64,000 bases of DNA from the NCBI GenBank assembly GCA_025353725.1, contig JANXOF010000021.1, positions 20,945 to 84,944 of the forward strand, in the 5' to 3' direction. Below the pieces are notes generated by a model. The model saw nothing but the letters and a program-made list of their open reading frames with translations, was not told the origin of the DNA and made no database searches. Origin of the DNA: Polyangiaceae bacterium (lineage in GTDB: Bacteria; Myxococcota_A; Polyangia; Polyangiales; Polyangiaceae). Positions 20,045 through 28,545 of the stretch are shown here, in pieces; within the stretch, counting starts at the first letter, position 1, and each line of letters starts with the position of its first letter. The translations under genes and the position numbers were made by a program.

Positions 20045-21031
20045 CTACTTCGTAAACGCAAAAAACGCAGTGAACGCCACAGCCGCGACGGCGTTCATCG
20101 CTATACCTTCGAGCGCCGGTTGGTAAGCTAACGCGAGTCCGGAACGAAACCCCACGTCAGTTTTGAGGCTCGCACTCAAGCCTACGGAGCAAGACCTCTG
20201 CGCGCTCAACGTCGAGAGACGCCCGCCGTAACTCACGTCCGTCTCCGCGGCGAGGTCGACGAAGGCGCCGAAGGTAACGTCGCCCTCGAACACGATCCCC
20301 ATCACGCGCAGCAGGCCGCGAGGCCCGAGGGCGCGACGCAGGCCTACAGAATCGTCCGGCGCGCGCCATGCGCCTTCCATCACCGCTCCGAGCTGATAGC
20401 GCTGCGCAAACGTCTTTCGAACATCGATGGCCAGCGCGACTTCGGTCGTACCGAGACCCTGACTCGTCGCGGTCGAGCCTACCGTCCCCGCACTCGGTCC
20501 GGCGCCGACATCGCCCGAACGATCGACACCTCCCGTGGGAAGACGAACCGACAACGTAACGCCGAGCGACGGCCGGCGAGAGCCATGGGGAAGGTCGATT
20601 GCAGGCTCGACAAGCGCCTCCCAACGCACCCGCAGGCCGAGATCGCCGAGCGCAGCCCGATCACTGTGAAACGACGGTCCACCCACGGCTACGTGACCAA
20701 ACGCGGACGTGGCCTCTACCTCAAGAACCTCAAACGGTCGGTAAGAAAGCGCCCCCGCGACCTCCATCACGCGGTCGTAGCTCGAAGGCCCGAAGCCGCG
20801 ATAGCGACCTCCCGTGTCGAACACACCGTGCCCAAGTCGCATCGTTTGCGCGAGGGAGGCGCCCCAGGTCTGCCCGGGCGCGGTGAGCGCCGAGCCCGCA
20901 CCTCCTGGCCCACGGCACGAGCCGCACGCGCCCGCGGGTGACGCGGAAATGATCACGAAGCTTGACGCAGAAAGAGCGAGCGCCAGTCGGAGGTGCACAA
21001 GAATCGCGTACTCTGAATGGCGCTCGCGCAT
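20045..21031 (-). CDS. Putative outer-membrane beta-barrel (MetA-pathway/transporter-like) with mature N-terminal CxxC
   Basis: Signal peptide ending PAGA followed by CGSC; amphipathic strands (GDLGLRVRWE, LGVTLSVRLPTG); terminal aromatic FAFTK. Confidence 0.6.
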   Translation of the reverse strand: MRERHSEYAILVHLRLALALSASSFVIISASPAGACGSCRGPGGAGSALTAPGQTWGASLAQTMRLGHGVFDTGGRYRGFGPSSYDRVMEVAGALSYRPFEVLEVEATSAFGHVAVGGPSFHSDRAALGDLGLRVRWEALVEPAIDLPHGSRRPSLGVTLSVRLPTGGVDRSGDVGAGPSAGTVGSTATSQGLGTTEVALAIDVRKTFAQRYQLGAVMEGAWRAPDDSVGLRRALGPRGLLRVMGIVFEGDVTFGAFVDLAAETDVSYGGRLSTLSAQRSCSVGLSASLKTDVGFRSGLALAYQPALEGIAMNAVAAVAFTAFFAFTK

Positions 21032-21037
21032 AGGCCG

Positions 21038-21430
21038 TCAGGGAACATCGACAGCGAGGAGAGCCTCGTCCTCGCGGCCGTCGAGACGGAAGCGGAGACG
21101 CAGTTCCCAGCGGCCCGACATGTAAAGCACAAGGTGACTCACTCGGTAACCGCCCACGGCGCGTTCGACCGTAGGCGGCTTCGAGCCATGTCCGTGAGCC
21201 GGCATCAGCGCAGAAACATCGAGAAGTTCTGCCCCCGCGCTCGCAGGAAACGAGACAGCAAGCTCGTTTTGACCGAGCTGAATCGGATGCATCGTGCTCA
21301 CGGCCAAGCCGTTCAAGTCGCGGGACTGAACGCGAACAGATCCGTCTCGAAGCTCGGGCAAGCGCACCTCCTCGCTCGCGCTACAAGCCGCCACTATCGT
21401 GCATAGTGCAAAGATATCGAACCGGCGCAT
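21038..21430 (-). CDS. YtkA/FixH-like Ig-fold lipoprotein
   Basis: Lipobox VAAC; SALMPAHGHG and LYMSGRWELRL motifs characteristic of YtkA-like domains. Confidence 0.75.
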   Translation of the reverse strand: MRRFDIFALCTIVAACSASEEVRLPELRDGSVRVQSRDLNGLAVSTMHPIQLGQNELAVSFPASAGAELLDVSALMPAHGHGSKPPTVERAVGGYRVSHLVLYMSGRWELRLRFRLDGREDEALLAVDVP

Positions 21431-21433
21431 GCG

Positions 21434-21799
21434 CTACTCTTTCGACGCGTCAGCGCCGGCGTCGCGAGCGGCGTCCCCGTCGCTTCCGGCGTCCTGCGGG
21501 CTCGTCATGGCCCCAGCGTCCGCACACAACGCGAGGCATCGAACTTTTTGAGCGGCGCACGGCTCATCGCTTACCGAATCGTGACCGAGCTCATGGCATT
21601 CGTGGAGCTCGCCCTCCCCGACGTCGAATTCGTGGCATGCCTCGGTAATGGCATTACATGACGGGTACGCGCTGGTGTGTCCCCCGGCTTCGTCGGAAGG
21701 AATGCGTACCGTGGCGGGCGGCGTCGTGGTTTTCGTCGAACAGGCGTAAAGTGCAGCGGCGGCTACGAACGTCGCAGCGCCAAAAAAAAGGCTTTTCAT
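21434..21799 (-). CDS. His/Cys-rich putative metal-binding lipoprotein
   Basis: GGAG SD 8 nt before ATG 21799; lipobox LYAC; core CNAITEACHEFDVGEGELHECHELGHDSVSDEPCAAQKVRCLALC. Confidence 0.7.
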   Translation of the reverse strand: MKSLFFGAATFVAAAALYACSTKTTTPPATVRIPSDEAGGHTSAYPSCNAITEACHEFDVGEGELHECHELGHDSVSDEPCAAQKVRCLALCADAGAMTSPQDAGSDGDAARDAGADASKE

Positions 21800-21893
21800 G
21801 AGATAAAACTCCAGGAGTGGCAAGTGCGCGCTTCGCGCCACACTGCCGTCACATCAAAAGCTCGAACATCGCGAGCACATCGACCGATGTCGG

Positions 21894-21920
21894 ATGCGTC
21901 GTATGCGTCGTATGCGTCGA
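21894..21920. repeat. 9-bp tandem repeat (ATGCGTCGT x2 + ATGCGTCGA)
   Basis: Read directly in the 21800-21937 intergenic spacer. Confidence 0.9.
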
Positions 21921-21937
21921 GCTGTGGAAAGGCTCCG

Positions 21938-22426
21938 TTACGCCAGCGCGCGTGGTGGAGGCAACTCGGGCCTTGGAGACCACTGGCTTCGACACGAAGC
22001 GAGTCTCGGGCGCGGTAGCCATGTCCCATCGGGTGCGACGAGCACGAAGGTCGACGGGAGAATCGCGGGAAGCGTCACACCCGCGGAGCTCGGATCGTTC
22101 GTCCCGCAACGACCGATGACGGTCGGCGCTCCGAAGGTCTCGACATCGTTCATCTCGGGAAAACAGAGCGGACACGCACAGTGGGCGTGGCCACCGCGCG
22201 TCTCACACGTGCACGAGTGCGCCGACGGGCCCGCGACCCCTACGGCCCTGGCGTACGCCGGGAACGCCGACCCGAACGCGAGCAGGAACGACAGCACGGC
22301 GACGAGGGTACTCAAAGCAAGCGCGGCAGTTCTCGACCGGGGACGCGGGGGGGTACGCCGACCTGCCTGAACCTGCGACCGGGTTGCCCGTCGCCTCTCT
22401 CGCGTATGTCGCGAACCGCTGACCAC
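21938..22426 (-). CDS. Exported Cys/His-rich leader-like protein (DUF2946/CruR/CutF-like architecture)
   Basis: Sec-type signal (…SAFPAYA), HSCTCETRGGHAHCACPLC metal motif, C-terminal SPRPELPPPR; first gene of the operon. Start uncertain. Confidence 0.6.
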   Translation of the reverse strand: MVSGSRHTRERRRATRSQVQAGRRTPPRPRSRTAALALSTLVAVLSFLLAFGSAFPAYARAVGVAGPSAHSCTCETRGGHAHCACPLCFPEMNDVETFGAPTVIGRCGTNDPSSAGVTLPAILPSTFVLVAPDGTWLPRPRLASCRSQWSPRPELPPPRALA

Positions 22427-22491: not shown

Positions 22492-23166
22492 GTGGGTCGT
22501 CCGTCTCCACTGCGTTCGTACGAGAGCCTGTGTCGTGACGTCGCGAATCGCTACAGCTCTCGACCCGCGCACTTCTACGTCCGTGCGAAGCTCTGGGTCG
22601 ATCCCGTTTCACGAACCCTCCATGAACTTGGCGAGCGCGAGTCCTACGACCGCGTGCTCGACGTTGGGTGCGGCCGGGGCCAAGTAAGTCTCATGCTCAG
22701 GGTCGCCGGCCTCGCGTCGAGCGTTCGCGGCGTCGATTGGGACGACGCCAAAATACGCCACGCGAAGGCGGCCGCCGTCGGCCTCGACCAGAGTGAGTTC
22801 GAACACGGGGACGTCCGCGACCGTGCGCTTCCGGCTGCCGACACCGTCCTGCTCGTCGATATTCTGCACTACTTGGGACGCGACGAGCAACACGCGCTGC
22901 TTCGCCGTGCAGCTCGCGCAGCCCGCAGCCGCATTCTCTTGCGCGACGTCGACCCCGAGCGCGGCGCCTCGAGTGCCTTCACCACGAGCTGGGAGCGACT
23001 GACGACGAAACTTGGCTATAACCAAGGCGAATGCGTGTCGCCGCAGCCATGCGACGAACTTGAACGTATACTCGACGCGGAAGGATTCGCCGTCACTCGG
23101 CAGCCGTGCGCGGCCTTCGGGCTATCCAACGCTCTCCTCGTCGCCCGTCGCGTCTCCCGAGGGTAG
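22492..23166 (+). CDS. Class I SAM-dependent methyltransferase
   Basis: VLDVGCGRG motif I, GVDWD, HGDVRD, DTVLLVDILHYL. Confidence 0.85.
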   Translation: MGRPSPLRSYESLCRDVANRYSSRPAHFYVRAKLWVDPVSRTLHELGERESYDRVLDVGCGRGQVSLMLRVAGLASSVRGVDWDDAKIRHAKAAAVGLDQSEFEHGDVRDRALPAADTVLLVDILHYLGRDEQHALLRRAARAARSRILLRDVDPERGASSAFTTSWERLTTKLGYNQGECVSPQPCDELERILDAEGFAVTRQPCAAFGLSNALLVARRVSRG

Positions 23167-24003
23167 CGCCTCCGCGTTCGCCTCCGCACGCGCGCCGAGA
23201 AGTACGCCTCGGTCGCCTAAATCGGAGAGAAGAGTCGCGGCGCCGCGAAGGACCAAATCATCGAGCGGGCATGCGGCTCGCGCGCACGCCGGCGCCATCG
23301 CCTCCGCCAGCGAGCGACCTTCGAGAAGCAGCTCGAGAAGAATCGATGCCAACGGCGTCAAGTCGAGGAAACGCGTGCAATGTGCACTGTCGCGATAGAC
23401 GAGCAAGTCTACCGCCCGCACTTCGGGCACGGCGGTGATGTCGCCGGCCTCGAGTTCGTGCACGGCCCACGCAAGATGCACGAGCACGTGCGGGTCCGCG
23501 AAAACCAAGCTCCGATCGGAGGTAACGTCGGCCAGTGAAGGAGGCGGCGCGGGCCGTGGCGCGGCTCCCATGGTGAAGTCGACGAGCTCGAACTCTGCGT
23601 AGTCCGCAAGCCACGCCGGAATCAAAGGATCGCGCCGCCACCCCGGCGCGCACCAACGGAGGAACTCACTCGGAACGTCGCGCAGGTGTGGCGTCCGTGG
23701 CCCCTTTTCGGCAAGAAACGCGTCGACAGAACGGTCAAACGCGCCGGGGGCATGCGCCTCGAGCCGCGCGCGCGTTCGCTCGAGCATCGCCCCGACCACG
23801 CTCACGATGTTGTGGCGCACGAGCTGCCTGTAGAGGCCCAGCCGTCGGGGCGCCGCAAGGATAGCGGCGGCGTCGTCCTCGGCCACGCGATGATGCGCGA
23901 GGTACGCGCCGAGATCTCCCGCGAGAGCCGCATCCGAGTGGCCGAAACAGGCGTCGGCCAAGAGCGCGTGCAGGCAACCCACGTCCGAAGCGAGACGCGT
24001 CAT
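23122..24003 (-). CDS. DUF2063-family MNIO partner protein (HvfC/BufC-like)
   Basis: ATGA-coupled to DUF692 gene; RRLGLYRQLVRHN, FLRW, WLADYAEFE, LLVYR motifs typical of DUF2063 partners. Confidence 0.8.
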   Translation of the reverse strand: MTRLASDVGCLHALLADACFGHSDAALAGDLGAYLAHHRVAEDDAAAILAAPRRLGLYRQLVRHNIVSVVGAMLERTRARLEAHAPGAFDRSVDAFLAEKGPRTPHLRDVPSEFLRWCAPGWRRDPLIPAWLADYAEFELVDFTMGAAPRPAPPPSLADVTSDRSLVFADPHVLVHLAWAVHELEAGDITAVPEVRAVDLLVYRDSAHCTRFLDLTPLASILLELLLEGRSLAEAMAPACARAACPLDDLVLRGAATLLSDLGDRGVLLGARAEANAEALPSGDATGDEESVG

Positions 24004-24941
24004 CGCGCGTACCTTGTCGCGTGCTCCGCGTCTGCGGTCGCACGCTCCGCGTCTGCGGTCGCACGCTCCCAAAGCGCCTTAATCGTAGCGACTTCGCGAA
24101 GGAGCGCGTCGAGTGGCGGAATCGCCTGGTCACGTTCGAGCAACACCGGGACCGGGCCGGTCACGCGGAGCGCGCGCTCGAGCAGCGAGAGCACGCCCTC
24201 GCAACAGTCGGACCCGTGCGTATCGACAATAAGCACGCCATCTCTCAGCGCGTCCGCGTGGGAGTAGGGCGTCGACGAAGGCGCGGGGCAAACCTTCCAG
24301 TCCGCTTCGGTAAACCAATCGTGCCCGGCCACGTGCATCTGCACGACGCGGTCGAGCGGAGCCGTGCGCAACCACTCATCGACGTCAAATCCGAAGTTTA
24401 CCGCATTCACGTACGCATTATTGATATCGAGCATGAGTCCGCAATCGGCTGCCTCGCACACGCGCGCGAGAAACTCGGCCTCACCCATCTCGCTCTTACC
24501 GGGATGCATGTAGAAGCTCACGTTCTCGATCGCGAGCGGCTTACCAATCGCGTCTTGTGCGCGCTGAATTCGCTCGGCGATACGTGTAACCTCAGACGTT
24601 TTGAACGGAATCGGTAATAGATCGTGCAAAACGACGCCGCCGAACGTGCTGAAACAGAGATGGTCGGAATGCCACGGGCTCTTCACGCGATCGAGAAACG
24701 ATGAGAGCTCGGTCAAGTAGTCCTCGCGAAGCGGGTCGACGCCACCGAGACTCATGGTCAGTCCGTGAGTGACCACGGGCCAGAGTGCCACCGTCCGCTC
24801 GAGCGCCTCATCGTAGTAGCCACCCCGCCCCATGTAGTTTTCAGGCGACACTTCGACGAAATCGAGCGCCGGCTGCGTCGCGAGCAGCTCGTCGATAAAG
24901 TCCCACCGCACTCCGAGTCCTACGCCGGAGAGACCCGTCAT
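24000..24941 (-). CDS. DUF692-family multinuclear non-heme iron oxidative enzyme (MNIO; MbnB/TglH/HvfB/BufB family)
   Basis: GVGLGVR, FVEVSPENY, HGLTMSLGG, WHSDHLC, HDLLP, AIENVS, LDINNAYVN, QMHVAGH, VDTHG, LLERD iron-ligand motifs. Confidence 0.95.
   Translation of the reverse strand: MTGLSGVGLGVRWDFIDELLATQPALDFVEVSPENYMGRGGYYDEALERTVALWPVVTHGLTMSLGGVDPLREDYLTELSSFLDRVKSPWHSDHLCFSTFGGVVLHDLLPIPFKTSEVTRIAERIQRAQDAIGKPLAIENVSFYMHPGKSEMGEAEFLARVCEAADCGLMLDINNAYVNAVNFGFDVDEWLRTAPLDRVVQMHVAGHDWFTEADWKVCPAPSSTPYSHADALRDGVLIVDTHGSDCCEGVLSLLERALRVTGPVPVLLERDQAIPPLDALLREVATIKALWERATADAERATADAEHATRYAR
24016..24069. repeat. 21-bp tandem repeat (~2.5 copies) at the 3' end of the MNIO gene
   Basis: GTCGC(GT/AC)GCTCCGCGTCTGCG repeated; encodes ERATADA ERATADA EHAT. 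Confidence 0.85.
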
Positions 24942-25039
24942 GCGAAACCCGCCACGCGAGTGAGCGGCTGACACACCGCGACGTTCATCCTGGTTTTATT
25001 CGTCATCATCGCTATCAGGCGAACAGTATAGAACGAACA

Positions 25040-25139: not shown

Positions 25140-25562
25140 CTACTTCTTCGCGCTGCAGGTCCCGGCTCCACAGCTACCCGAACCACCTTTTTTCGCGGGC
25201 GTCGCGGGGGTTGCAGGCGTCGCGGGCTTCTTCGCTGCGGCGGCAGCCGCGGCGGGTGTCGGGGTTGCGGCGACCGCTGACTTCACGTCCGCGGCTTTCG
25301 TGTCGACCGTCGTCGGCACTGGGGTCGAGGCCGTAGACGGCGTTGACGTCGCAGGCTCAACCGCCTTCGCGGCCTTGTCAGCGGAGCACGCAGCTTCACC
25401 CGCCTTGTGCGTGGCGTCTGAAGCCTTTTCGGTGGCGCCGGAAACCTCGTTCGCGTTGACGGGGGTTTTGGGCTCTTCACCGCCGCAGGCGGCCATGATG
25501 ACACCGGTACCGAGAACGGCGAGCGCCGCGGCGATTTTCTCAAAAGATAGATTCGGACGCAT
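25140..25562 (-). CDS. Lipoprotein precursor for MNIO modification (oxazolin/bufferin-like)
   Basis: AAGGAG SD 8 nt before ATG 25562; lipobox MAAC (Cys26); GEAACS motif, long Ala/Pro/Thr/Lys linker, C-terminal GGSGSCGAGTCSAKK; immediately upstream of DUF692-DUF2063. Confidence 0.8.
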   Translation of the reverse strand: MRPNLSFEKIAAALAVLGTGVIMAACGGEEPKTPVNANEVSGATEKASDATHKAGEAACSADKAAKAVEPATSTPSTASTPVPTTVDTKAADVKSAVAATPTPAAAAAAAKKPATPATPATPAKKGGSGSCGAGTCSAKK

Positions 25563-25823
25563 CCCTATCACTCCTTGCTAATGACGATTGGGCGCAACTT
25601 GAATCACGCCGTTTGCTCTGCGAGTCGGTTGCCCGCTCGGCGACTAGAACCGTATCACGCGTATCACGTCCACGAACGCAATCAACACTGAGCTTCGCGC
25701 GCACTGTACGGACGATTAAACGCCCCTTTCCGTACGCGCGCCTACGGCGTCGCCTTACCATTGTCCGCCGACTTCGTAGCTTCGGAGCGGTCTACGCGGC
25801 GGCGTGAGGACAAGTTTCGGCGT

Positions 25824-27095
25824 TCAACTCTTTTCTTGTTCGAGGCTCTCCCGATTTCGAAGACTCCGCGCTTTTGTGCTTCGAATACGCGCCGCGAGCG
25901 CGGGCGGCGCGAGTAAGGTCGTCGCAAAAACCGCCGCGACGAGTGCAGAGTACACTCCGGGAGAAAGCAGCGGTATGCCCCCCGGTGCGATGCGCGTTCC
26001 GACATCCGCAAAGATAAGCCCCACTTCCCCACGCGGGACCATTCCAAAACCAACAGTAAGCCTGTCCAGGTTCTTGCCTCGGGCACCGAAACCGGCGGCG
26101 ACTTTACCGCCAATGGCCGTCGCGACCAGTGCGCTCGCCAAGGCAAGTGTTCCGCCGTCGAGGCCACTCAGCTTTACGCTCATCCCCGTGCGCACGAAAA
26201 AGACGGGAGCGAAAACGGCCGCGATGGGAGCGACGAAGGCTTCCACGTGTTGGACGCCCGTAGCGTCTTTGTCGTTGAACGGGGCCACGCTTACGTCGTC
26301 GAGCAAAAGACCGGCGGCGTAGGCTCCCACGATCGCGGCAAGGCCTGACGCCGCACTCGCTCCAGCCACGAGGAGGCAGGCGGCCACGGACAACGCACCG
26401 AGCACGTAGGGCGTGCGAAGCGACGACGCGAGACGGTAGACGCGACCGAATAAAAGCGTACCGAACGCTATAGCCCCGACCACGAAGGCCAAGGCCGTTC
26501 CCGTAATGCGCGCGAGTGTCGCGGGGGCCGGCATTCCGCCGCCGGTCATGGCAATAGCGGAGACAATAGCAAGAACAAGCAGCCCGAGAATGTCATCGAT
26601 GACCGCGGCGCCGAGGATCATCTTCGCTTCCTCGCTGCCGAGCGCGCCGACGTCCTTCAACACACTCGCGGTAATGCCGACGCTCGTGGCGCACATCGTG
26701 GCACCGACGAAGAGATGAACGGCAGGCGTCGCGTGAGGAAGGAGCCACGTGCTTGCGCCGAAGCCAAGAGCACTCGGAAGGATCACGCCGAGCGAGGCCA
26801 CCCCACCCGCACGCACGGCGATCTTCGCCATCTCGCGAAGACTCGATTCGAGTCCGACCTGGAAGAGCAAGAGCATGACTCCGAGCTCGGCCGCGAACGT
26901 CAGCTCCGGCCCTTTCGCAAGTCTCGCAAGACCCTCAAAAGGAAGGTTTCCGAGGAGCACGCCCACGGCGAGCTCGCCGAGCACGGAGGGCTGCCGGAGT
27001 CGCCGTGCGGCTTCCCCGCCGAGCTTCGCGGCGAGGATAAGCAACGCAAGGGCGAACCACGTGTGCGCTGCGACCCCGTGCTCCACGCGTGGCAA
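25824..27095 (-). CDS. Cation:proton antiporter (CPA2/Na+/H+ exchanger family)
   Basis: About 12 TM helices; PSVLGEL, LLFQVGLE, ATSVGIT, AAVIDDILG, PVFFV, GMVPRGEVG motifs. Confidence 0.9.
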   Translation of the reverse strand: MPRVEHGVAAHTWFALALLILAAKLGGEAARRLRQPSVLGELAVGVLLGNLPFEGLARLAKGPELTFAAELGVMLLLFQVGLESSLREMAKIAVRAGGVASLGVILPSALGFGASTWLLPHATPAVHLFVGATMCATSVGITASVLKDVGALGSEEAKMILGAAVIDDILGLLVLAIVSAIAMTGGGMPAPATLARITGTALAFVVGAIAFGTLLFGRVYRLASSLRTPYVLGALSVAACLLVAGASAASGLAAIVGAYAAGLLLDDVSVAPFNDKDATGVQHVEAFVAPIAAVFAPVFFVRTGMSVKLSGLDGGTLALASALVATAIGGKVAAGFGARGKNLDRLTVGFGMVPRGEVGLIFADVGTRIAPGGIPLLSPGVYSALVAAVFATTLLAPPALAARIRSTKARSLRNRESLEQEKS

Positions 27096-27291
27096 ACTAC
27101 ACGAGTGGCGACTCCGGCGCGATGCGCAGTGGATGGCCGACCGAAGCCGACTGCGGACGTGCTCGGAGGCGTCGTCACCTCGAGCGAACAGCGACTACCT
27201 CCACGACGACTCCCAACGCGCTCTCGCGTGACGCGAACACACGGCGCCAATTCCCGTACGTGGCAATGGCTGTCCGTACCCGTACGGACGC

Positions 27292-27828
27292 CTATTTGCC
27301 CGATGCCGCAAGCGCTCGAAGTCGCGCCGTGTCGTACGGTACTTGGGTGAGCGGGCTGCCGCGCCACTCACTGCGCGGAGTGTCGAAGAAGGCGCCGCCG
27401 TACACGTGCAACGCGCCGAGCGGTTCGTCGCCCCCGCTCGCAATCGCGTGAATCACGTCTCGGTCGTGCACGGCAACCTGGCCGGTTCCCACCCGACGAC
27501 GCTCCGTTTCGCAGAGGCCATCGTCACATAGTGCATAGTACACATTTTCTTCGACGCCCGAATAGACGCCGACCGCCGACACCATCGCGTGGTCGTGTGG
27601 TGGGAATGTAAAGCCGCCCGGGGTCACAAACTGCACAACGGTAAGGTGCGGCCCCTCATGAAGGACGGACACGCGCAGACCACGGCCGACAGGCAGTGCA
27701 GAGAGCAGGGCGACTCGATTTTCAAGGACGTCACTCATTGCCGCGTGGAGGGCCGTGAGCGGGTTTGGGTCATCGAGTGCGGCGCGGCATTGCTCGACGA
27801 AGCGATCCGCTTCAAAGTAACCCCCCAT
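27292..27828 (-). CDS. Cysteine dioxygenase-like cupin metalloprotein
   Basis: PPHDH...GVYSGVEEN and VIHAI...ALHVYGG cupin His motifs. Confidence 0.75.
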   Translation of the reverse strand: MGGYFEADRFVEQCRAALDDPNPLTALHAAMSDVLENRVALLSALPVGRGLRVSVLHEGPHLTVVQFVTPGGFTFPPHDHAMVSAVGVYSGVEENVYYALCDDGLCETERRRVGTGQVAVHDRDVIHAIASGGDEPLGALHVYGGAFFDTPRSEWRGSPLTQVPYDTARLRALAASGK

Positions 27829-27837
27829 CGCAGCTCC

Positions 27838-28545
27838 TCAGCGCTTTTTCTTCGTGCGGCGTACGGCTGTCATCGGGGATGCTCCCGGATCTGCGGCCTC
27901 GCGGTTGTACGCCGCGCGCTTTCCGGCGTCCTGCACCGAAGGGGGCGTCGACGCGAGCGCGGCCACGAGTGAGCGCGTCGCCCACACTGCGGCCTGCTCC
28001 GCTTCTTCTTCGCTCATCCCTATAACGTCGCGAAGCCACTGCCACATCGGCGGGTAGGAGAACGCCATCACCGGCCCCAGCGCAGTGAGTAGCGTGCGGT
28101 TATCCAGGTGCGGCGCCACGCTTCGCAGGTTCTCGAGCGCCGCATCCACGTAGGCTGACCGCGTGCAGCTGCGATGACCGCTCCACGATGAGGAGGTCCA
28201 GATTGCGCGGAGGAGCCCCTGGTATAGGGCGAAGCGCGGGAAGCGGCCGCGCGGTAGCTCGTGCAGAAGCGAAGGCGGCGGGAGCGGGTCGCGCGTGCCC
28301 AAGTGCGGCAGCACCCACTCGTAGAGCGAGCGCATGAGGTCGTCGACTGTGCGGAAATTCGCGTACGCAGTGGGCGGCGTCACCCCCGCAAGCCGCGCGA
28401 GCTTCGGCAACGTGAGCTCTGATGCTGGGTGGGACTCAAAAAAGAGAGCCGCCGCCGCCAGCAATCGCTCGCGCGTTGCACGAGCATGCTCCTCGCGCGT
28501 CAGCGAACTCTTTCGGTGCGATGTCTTTTTCGGCGGCGCGCTCAT
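27838..28545 (-). CDS. TetR/AcrR-family transcriptional regulator
   Basis: TRERLLAAAALFF...LTLPKLARLAGVTPPTAYANFRT HTH; 10 bp upstream of the cupin gene. Confidence 0.85.
   Translation of the reverse strand: MSAPPKKTSHRKSSLTREEHARATRERLLAAAALFFESHPASELTLPKLARLAGVTPPTAYANFRTVDDLMRSLYEWVLPHLGTRDPLPPPSLLHELPRGRFPRFALYQGLLRAIWTSSSWSGHRSCTRSAYVDAALENLRSVAPHLDNRTLLTALGPVMAFSYPPMWQWLRDVIGMSEEEAEQAAVWATRSLVAALASTPPSVQDAGKRAAYNREAADPGASPMTAVRRTKKKR

Follow-up and report, generated by a model that had tools for sequence, protein, structure and literature searches.

A candidate metal-sensing arrest leader with a PPPR tail upstream of a lipoprotein operon in a Polyangiaceae bacterium

The stretch of DNA analyzed here, which we call the window, comprises 64,000 nucleotides from a Polyangiaceae bacterium (assembly GCA_025353725.1, contig JANXOF010000021.1, positions 20,945 to 84,944 of the forward strand). 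Within it, a minus-strand open reading frame (ORF) at 21938..22426 stands ahead of a series of lipoprotein genes that probably handle metal (Table 1). The ORF starts with GTG and encodes a protein of 162 residues, referred to below as the leader. Its N-terminus consists of an Arg-rich stretch of 31 residues (10 of them Arg), which is unusually long in the window copy, then hydrophobic residues 32-55 and then the sequence PAYA/R; no alternative in-frame ATG, GTG or TTG is found 5' of the hydrophobic segment. The Cys/His core reads HSCTCETRGGHAHCACPLCFPE...GRCGTNDP (also written GPSAHSCTCETRGGHAHCACPLCFPE...GRCGTNDP), or in short HSCTC...HAHCACPLC...GRCG, and includes a CxxC formed by C85-P-L-C88. 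The protein ends in SPRPELPPPRALA (RPELPPPRALA) and is closed by TAA at 21938-21940. The PPP of this tail is encoded by CCT CCA CCA at 21953-21961. The next conserved start, an ATG at 21799, lies 138 nucleotides past the leader stop and opens a lipoprotein gene (MKSLFFGAATF...), with GGAG in Shine-Dalgarno (SD) position at 21809-21812. An initial annotation of this ORF had reported the Cys/His cluster with its CxxC, the 138-nucleotide spacer and the GGAG, all of which we confirmed; the cluster is seen in the translation and is conserved over the family described below.

Table 1. Coordinates of the leader gene, its parts and the genes that follow it (residue numbers are those of the leader; loci of related genomes are cited by L handles)
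Feature	Position	Strand	Basis
Leader gene, 162-residue Cys/His-rich predicted exported protein	21938..22426	-	Translation, homologs, conserved synteny
Predicted N-terminal export signal, residues 1-59: Arg-rich n-region, h-region 32-55, P-A-Y-A/R site	22250..22426	-	AlphaFold2 helix, hydrophobicity, alignment
Cys/His core, residues 66-112, GPxxHxCxC...HxxCxCPxCxPE...GxCG, presumed metal sensor	22091..22231	-	Two family alignments
Linker, residues 113-150, Ala/Pro/Val-rich, length fixed, sequence variable	21977..22090	-	Alignment, predicted local distance difference test (pLDDT) 49-65
Candidate arrest motif R-P-E-L-P-P-P-R, 3 codons from stop	21950..21973	-	Near-universal PPP/PP[RK] in family
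Leader-lipoprotein spacer, 138 nucleotides	21800..21937	-	ORF coordinates
9-nucleotide x 3.4 tandem repeat (GACGCATAC, mRNA strand) within spacer	21889..21919	-	Tandem Repeats Finder (TRF)
Weak terminator-like hairpin GCUCG-CGAUGUU-CGAGC then UUUUGAUGUG	21850..21876	-	Terminator scan
GGAG Shine-Dalgarno of downstream lipoprotein gene, CUCC on its 5' flank	21809..21812	-	Sequence
121-residue Cys/His-rich lipoprotein, presumed first regulated gene	21434..21799	-	Conserved start MKS(L/I)FFGA
130-residue lipoprotein, weakly YtkA-like	21038..21430	-	Pfam YtkA E = 0.0029, below cut-off
328-residue secreted protein, probably outer membrane; closes conserved block	20045..21031	-	Co-linear in L003, L004, L028, L038, L039, L041

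The ORF is a real gene. GC content at third codon positions alone does not tell the two strands apart here, and a chance ORF or an antisense gene was considered; both are ruled out by more than 100 homologs with conserved motifs and synteny. A word-based search returned 14 close homologs of about 120 residues from metagenomes and a Labilithrix metagenome-assembled genome (MAG), and the alignment of these sequences is invariant at PAYAR, HxCxC...HxxCACPxCFPE, GxCGxDDP and the C-terminal RPELPPPRA-stop. When 1.8 billion cluster representatives were searched with a profile, 107 proteins of the family were recovered (clusters at 50% identity), 60 of them at E < 1e-10. Nearly all of these clusters come from one myxobacterial family, and the named records are from Labilithrix and Polyangiaceae MAGs. 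Most members have about 120-150 residues. The leader family was present in 9 of 301 sampled Myxococcota genomes. Within the taxonomic family of the window it occurred in 39 of 301 genomes (14 of 89 genera); 12 of the 14 genomes sampled from the window's genus carry it, with at most four paralogs per genome.

Counts of motifs, spacing and conservation refer to 109 aligned members unless stated otherwise. C72, C74, C85, C88 and C107 are invariant in 109/109 and H70 is kept in at least 90%, while C83 and H80 are invariant in the 15 closest sequences only. The Pro-rich PPPR tail noticed in the initial annotation proved to be near-universal: within the last 14 residues PPP occurs in 94/109 members, PP[RK] in 101/109 and PP in 108/109, and the motif, of the form [T/L/E]PPPR, lies 2-13 residues (median 5) from the C-terminal end. 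P153, P157 and P158 are invariant over the whole alignment and R159 in the 15 closest sequences. The tail of L057 and L061 reads PPQKPPK, not PPPR. Measured in bits per column, conservation is highest in the C-terminal 10 residues (2.80), followed by the Cys/His core (2.02), and is lowest in the linker (1.23). The length across this linker is kept: C107, the last of the invariant Cys, lies 50-56 residues before P158 in 109/109 members, with an interquartile range of 51-52. Taken over the family, the motifs, the spacing and the conservation of the tail place these features far beyond chance. Searches of Pfam, NCBIfam and PDB sequences with the window protein and the 109 aligned members gave no meaningful match. 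A C-terminal sorting signal of the PEP-CTERM/MYXO-CTERM type was considered for the tail and rejected by inspection: the motif is followed by neither a transmembrane segment nor a basic cluster, and only three residues remain before the end of the protein.

At the other end of the protein, a hydrophobic N-terminal window was found in 105/109 members and the A-x-A-R site is conserved. AlphaFold2, run with the family alignment, gave a model of the leader (pLDDT 68.9; predicted template modelling score 0.37) that is confident for a helix at residues 32-61 only and is essentially without regular structure elsewhere. Hydrophobicity, the A-x-A-R site and this helix suggest that the leader carries a Sec-type export signal. 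Thus, where the initial annotation had spoken of a signal peptide, the ORF and its hydrophobic N-terminus stand as observed, and the export signal itself is a prediction.

A same-strand gene for a lipoprotein or a secreted protein was found 3' of the leader at every one of 41 loci, behind an intergenic region of 21-242 nucleotides (median 95). The downstream genes are of three types, encoding a Cys/His-rich lipoprotein, a YtkA/FixH-like lipoprotein or a DUF1775/YcnI protein. The first of these, as at 21434-21799 of the window, is the commonest gene directly after the leader and stands there at most loci; the third type is found behind a paralog in L009. Published work describes DUF1775/YcnI proteins as copper chaperones. 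Homologs of the 130-residue lipoprotein in L013, L033 and L034 match YtkA significantly; for FixH, the L013 homolog passes the cut-off (24.7 vs 23 bits) and that of L034 matches weakly, below the cut-off. The order of genes at orthologous loci is a CopA-type P-type ATPase (opposite strand), in some cases a Na/H exchanger, a 267-residue gene, a lipoprotein of about 145 residues ending in KKGGxGSCGAGTCSAKK, an MNIO (MbnB/HvfB-like) gene, HvfC, a methyltransferase (opposite strand) and the leader; after the leader follow the Cys/His-rich lipoprotein, the YtkA-like lipoprotein and a secreted protein of about 325 residues. Judged from these neighbours (YcnI, FixH/YtkA, CopA and MNIO), the metal sensed or handled by the leader operon is probably copper.

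The proximity of an MNIO gene raises the possibility that the leader is a second precursor of a ribosomally synthesized and post-translationally modified peptide (RiPP), bufferin- or HvfA-like, whose cysteines are modified by the MNIO-HvfC pair at 23122-24974. This MNIO/HvfB-like enzyme and its HvfC partner lie about 700 bp upstream of the leader. Precursors of the bufferin type likewise contain Cys and are exported by means of a Sec signal, and one member of the leader family matched HvfA marginally (E = 0.043). However, there was no significant match to bufferin/HvfA or to NCBIfam precursor models in the 109 members, the opposite-strand methyltransferase gene stands between the two units, and a better precursor candidate with a conserved CGAGTCSAKK lies directly 5' of the MNIO gene, at 25140-25571. 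In addition, L009, L010, L011, L013 and L014 lack MNIO and HvfC within 3 kb and keep the downstream lipoprotein. Since paralogs and distant members do without the MNIO block and retain the downstream lipoprotein or secreted-protein gene, the leader is to be counted with the lipoprotein module rather than with the RiPP module, and a role as RiPP precursor seems very unlikely.

Short exported proteins with a Cys motif and a Pro-rich end are known as regulators of copper genes. CutF, encoded in the cutFOG operon of Rhodobacter capsulatus, has 118 residues, a Sec signal, the motif C69xxxC73 and the tail P109-EPEGPPPRL-118 (PMC8456105, PMC9973294, bioRxiv 10.1101/2025.02.05.636593; together the CutF papers). 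Cu-dependent production of CutO is lost when PPP is changed to PAP or the tail is deleted, and the mechanism involves EF-P together with a stem-loop that covers the cutO SD (CutF papers). CutF has no Pfam match; its class is set by rules, and the earliest interpretation was of a chaperone whose polyproline tail mediates interactions (CutF papers). The leader is similar to CutF in its small size, in the Sec-type signal predicted here, in the central Cys motif and in the ...PE.PPPR[L/A] placed by the stop (PEPEGPPPRL in CutF, RPELPPPRA here). The two also share a same-strand downstream gene for an exported protein, copper-related for CutF and metal-linked here, and a downstream SD which pairs with upstream RNA, here in many family members. 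They differ in the core, which is HxCxC...CxCxxC...GxCG with five invariant Cys in the leader family and CxxxC in CutF, and in the distance from the last Cys to PPP, which is about 50 residues here and about 40 in CutF by our count from C73 to P114. The cargo consists of lipoproteins (Cys/His-rich, YtkA/FixH-like, YcnI-like) here and of a multicopper oxidase in CutF; the spacers are longer here (median 95 nucleotides, 138 in the window); the window is without a local stem-loop over the SD; and the host is a member of Myxococcota, with no detectable sequence homology of the leader to CutF.

Applied to the leader, the rules for CutF-like proteins (Ozturk et al. 2021/2023) give the following picture. 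With 162 residues it falls under the limit of <170 of 2021 and exceeds the limit of <150 of 2023. The central Cys/His metal-binding motif is present as CxCxxC rather than CxxxC, PP occurs in the last 15 residues (PPPRALA-stop), and the same-strand downstream gene, required at less than 1000 nucleotides, begins after 138 in the window. A Sec signal, which the rules also call for, is suggested in the leader by the features described above, with an n-region of unusual length. By these sequence features the leader family fits the rule-based CutF-like class in its 2021 version.

The second relevant protein is CruR (Bp2923) of Bordetella pertussis, a member of DUF2946 (PF11162), which acts via Rho over a 162-nucleotide spacer; its action is independent of the signal peptide, and little structure is predicted for it (PMC9426467). 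In DUF2946 the gap between CXXC and RAPP is 45 residues; this gap is functionally important and varies by no more than 1-2 residues among over 2000 proteins (PMC9426467). Arrest by CruR was shown in vitro (PMC12992588), and RAPP/RGPP upstream ORFs (uORFs) occur 5' of copper-resistance and YcnI-like genes, the arrest at RAPP being EF-P-refractory (PMC12992588, Fujiwara et al. 2025). Like CruR, which heads a copper-related operon, the leader stands at the head of its operon, has a CxxC and a Pro-Pro motif three residues from the stop, keeps the spacing between the motifs near-constant, and is followed by a long spacer (162 nucleotides for CruR, 138 in the window); both have a C>G-rich 3' coding region. 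The leader lacks an AlphaFold2 fold past the signal helix, and for CruR, too, a poor structure is predicted. The differences are the motif, PPPR here and RAPP in CruR, and the number of intervening residues, about 50 here and 45 in CruR. With the RAPP/RGPP uORFs the leader shares the small protein, the localization signal (predicted for the leader), the C-terminal Pro-Pro core and a position 5' of metal-homeostasis genes including YcnI-like ones. It differs in having no Arg-Ala/Gly before PP, the Arg coming after the prolines, and a stall at PPP would be expected to be EF-P-sensitive, unlike the EF-P-refractory one at RAPP.

Membership in DUF2946 was not found. None of the 109 members matched PF11162 at E<=1, nor did the window protein, and the window's own genome contains no PF11162 match above the cut-off. 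When the family alignment was compared with nine myxobacterial DUF2946 sequences by hhalign, only the last 17 columns were aligned, with a probability of 1.2%. The spacing rule of about 45 residues between CXXC and RAPP does not describe the leader either, in which C88 lies about 71 residues and C107 51-52 residues from P158 and the motif is PPPR. Canonical DUF2946 proteins were seen in 12/301 sampled Myxococcota genomes (L015-L027), where they end in RAPP or K(A/T)SPP. The leader family may therefore be read as working like CutF and CruR, but not as a member of DUF2946.

If the ribosome on the tail controls the next gene, the RNA at the end of the leader may be involved. Pairing of the downstream SD was examined at 41 non-identical family loci, with 150 same-strand gene pairs of the window's genome only as controls. 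It can be seen that at least 5.8 of 12 SD nucleotides pair with the last 60 nucleotides of the leader at 24/41 loci versus 30/150 controls (Mann-Whitney p = 5e-7), and that pairing is more extensive in native leaders than when the same peptide is recoded with synonymous codons (Wilcoxon p = 1.5e-5; p <= 0.1 at 14/41 loci, 4 expected); both statistics are inflated by the shared ancestry of the loci, and the controls come from a single genome. SD pairing with the leader tail is thus enriched across the family. In L032, L033 and L034 the partner of the SD is the PPP codons themselves (CCU-CCN = CCUCC), with a probability of about 1, and between L032 and L033 the SD:tail helix shows one compensatory change of A:U to G:C. 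The PPP codons also supply most of the SD pairing in L056. In the closest orthologs of the window, the partner lies 8-11 codons further upstream than the PPP codons. Codon choice at the motif is biased, the less-used CCU and CCA making up 53% of its Pro codons vs 28% genome-wide, and minor codons are kept among orthologs, namely CGU at R152 (window numbering) in 8/9 and CCA at the third Pro in 8/11. The last 60-70 nucleotides of most leaders form a C>G-rich stretch. Such a stretch would suit a CruR-like route, but it is an automatic by-product of the Pro codons and hence uninformative on Rho/rut, and it was discarded as evidence.

The spacer of the window has some features of its own. No orthologous spacer contains its 9-nucleotide repeat GACGCATAC, to which much of the extra spacer length is due. 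In most close orthologs (L001, L037, L038, L040, L041, L042) the leader stop codon lies in the loop of a conserved GC palindrome, CACGCGCG-UAG-CGCGC(U/C)CGCG, which is missing in the window because of two extra codons (Leu-Ala). The spacer hairpin with its U-tract (21850-21876) suggests a further explanation, namely attenuation by an intrinsic terminator that ends transcription unless a ribosome lingers at the end of the leader. A terminator-like site, GCUCGCGAUGUUCGAGC-UUUUGAUG, does exist, and a longer hairpin appears in the minimum free energy and centroid folds. However, the scan found this one site against 0.9 +/- 1.1 expected in shuffles, which is not significant, comparable sites were present in only 4/18 family spacers, and the 5' arm begins about 60 nucleotides past the stop, beyond the reach of a ribosome at PPP. 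We regard such attenuation as highly improbable.

The explanation which we favour, and which we consider moderately probable on sequence features and on analogy, is that the ORF is a lineage-specific, cis-acting uORF of the CutF/CruR type, a metal-sensing arrest leader. If so, this lineage most likely has its own form of a known switch rather than a new kind of system. The leader would carry its Sec-type signal and leave the cell while still being translated. With a ribosome at the PPPR codons, three codons from the stop, the last invariant Cys would lie about 50 residues away from the peptidyl-transferase centre. A gap of this length would put the Cys/His cluster just past the ribosome tunnel and the translocon, where it would face periplasmic metal, most likely copper. 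Binding of the metal, or alternatively folding or disulfide formation, may then alter the dwell of the ribosome on PPP, and occupancy of the last codons would set the expression of the downstream lipoprotein genes in a direction and by a route that we can only infer. One option for the route is unmasking of the SD, which pairs with the last 20 codons of the leader in many members and with CCU-CCN Pro codons in some; another is that access of Rho is blocked, as in CruR. For the CutF/CruR-like cis regulator proposed in the initial annotation, the protein anatomy, the spacing and the gene context hold up, and DUF2946 membership and an SD-covering structure in the window do not.

Alternatively, the leader may be exported to bind metal as a stable protein, acting as a chaperone in the periplasm, in storage or as a partner of the downstream lipoproteins; the fixed linker and the PPPR tail would then serve protein-protein docking or anchoring rather than translation arrest. 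In favour of this, the five invariant Cys and the near-invariant His make the core richer than a lone CxxC, and Cys/His-rich, YtkA-like or YcnI-like lipoproteins are encoded together with the leader in all cases; CutF, too, was at first taken for a chaperone with a polyproline tail. Against this, the tail is conserved above the metal core and always lies 2-13 residues from the stop, and a spacing held to about +/-1 residue in most members would be unusual for a docking tether, given that the linker varies and is probably disordered. Moreover, synonymous-site signals tie the codons of the tail to the downstream SD, and AlphaFold2 predicted no fold. It therefore seems unlikely, though clearly less so than the RiPP and terminator explanations, that the leader acts as a stable metalloprotein.

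Several points weigh against an arrest leader in the form just described. PPP stalls are normally rescued by EF-P. The conserved core with its invariant Cys and near-invariant His could equally fit a stable metalloprotein, and the pairing statistics carry the inflation mentioned above. As no DUF2946 homology was detected, the analogy with CutF and CruR rests on anatomy. A structure masking the GGAG, which the initial annotation had suggested looking for, was not obtained from the window: the fold of 21780-21975 is not more stable than shuffles (z = -0.71), and the 10-nucleotide SD window is predicted to be unpaired to 0.47 (about 47%), which is not lower than in shuffles. Only 0.6 of 12 nucleotides of the window SD pair with the leader, and the SD pairs mostly with the downstream coding sequence. 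Orthologous spacers have no shared consensus structure (RNAalifold, 8 orthologs: -6.7 kcal/mol, covariation term unfavourable), and blocking the footprint of a stalled ribosome in silico did not consistently free the SD. With 162 residues, an unusually long basic N-region and a 138-nucleotide spacer, the window leader is also long if a ribosome that pauses on the tail is to act through direct melting. In CutF, finally, the motif alone is not a strong staller (CutF papers).

A bolder form of the arrest-leader explanation, which we hold to be possible but rather doubtful, is that the leader is a nascent-chain metal sensor which is confined to one myxobacterial family and has evolved independently or diverged beyond recognition. 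A multi-Cys/His cluster with five invariant Cys would be read 51-52 residues from PPPR, and the CCU-CCN arrest codons would at the same time be the anti-SD of the next gene, so that the dwell of the ribosome on three codons would directly gate translation of the lipoprotein metal-handling module. If true, this would amount to a minimal 'occupancy switch', unlike the switches of CutF, which uses a stem-loop, and of CruR, which uses Rho.

Metal-sensing arrest peptides have been worked out in two proteobacteria only, with CruR and CutF, and the question they pose is by what means a metal beyond the membrane alters the dwell of a ribosome. The leader family offers a sequence-unrelated natural replicate with sharp constraints, i.e. 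the PPPR tail, the 51-52-residue ruler, the multi-Cys/His sensor and, in some members, anti-SD arrest codons, and these constraints lead to clear and cheap predictions for mutagenesis. If the arrest-leader explanation holds, the principle would extend to Myxococcota and to new cargo, namely Cys/His-rich, YtkA/FixH-like and YcnI-like lipoproteins beside an MNIO metallophore cluster. About a hundred 'hypothetical proteins' would also gain a name.

Among the other genes of the locus, neither the 121-residue lipoprotein at 21434-21799 and its family nor the 328-residue protein at 20045..21031 is matched by a Pfam or NCBIfam model. The lipoprotein family has about 110 residues and the pattern H-T-S-x-[YF]-P-x-C...ACH...H[ED]CHxLGHD...C...C...C; homologs were found in L009-L011, L028, L046, L050, L059 and L064. 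In L056, L057, L061 and L065 the leader precedes another lipoprotein, of about 130 residues with DFTGG(T/E)R near its N-terminus. On the other side of the leader, the window carries an HvfC-like partner gene at 23122-24072 (-) and the MNIO (MbnB/HvfB/BufB-like) gene at 24000-24974 (-), which scores 272 bits, under both equivalog cut-offs. The region 5' of this RiPP block (25824-28545, minus strand) holds a Na+/H+ exchanger at 25824-27095 and a TetR-family regulator at 27838-28545; the CopA ATPase and the 267-residue gene, present there in relatives, are missing from the window. The 143-residue lipoprotein at 25140-25571 (-) has the invariant C-terminal KKGGxGSCGAGTCSAKK, and its relatives have an extra motif, HCGAGKDHKAGEAAC, of which the HCGAGKD part is lost in the window copy. 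This lipoprotein is probably an undescribed, lipoprotein-type precursor of an MNIO metallophore.

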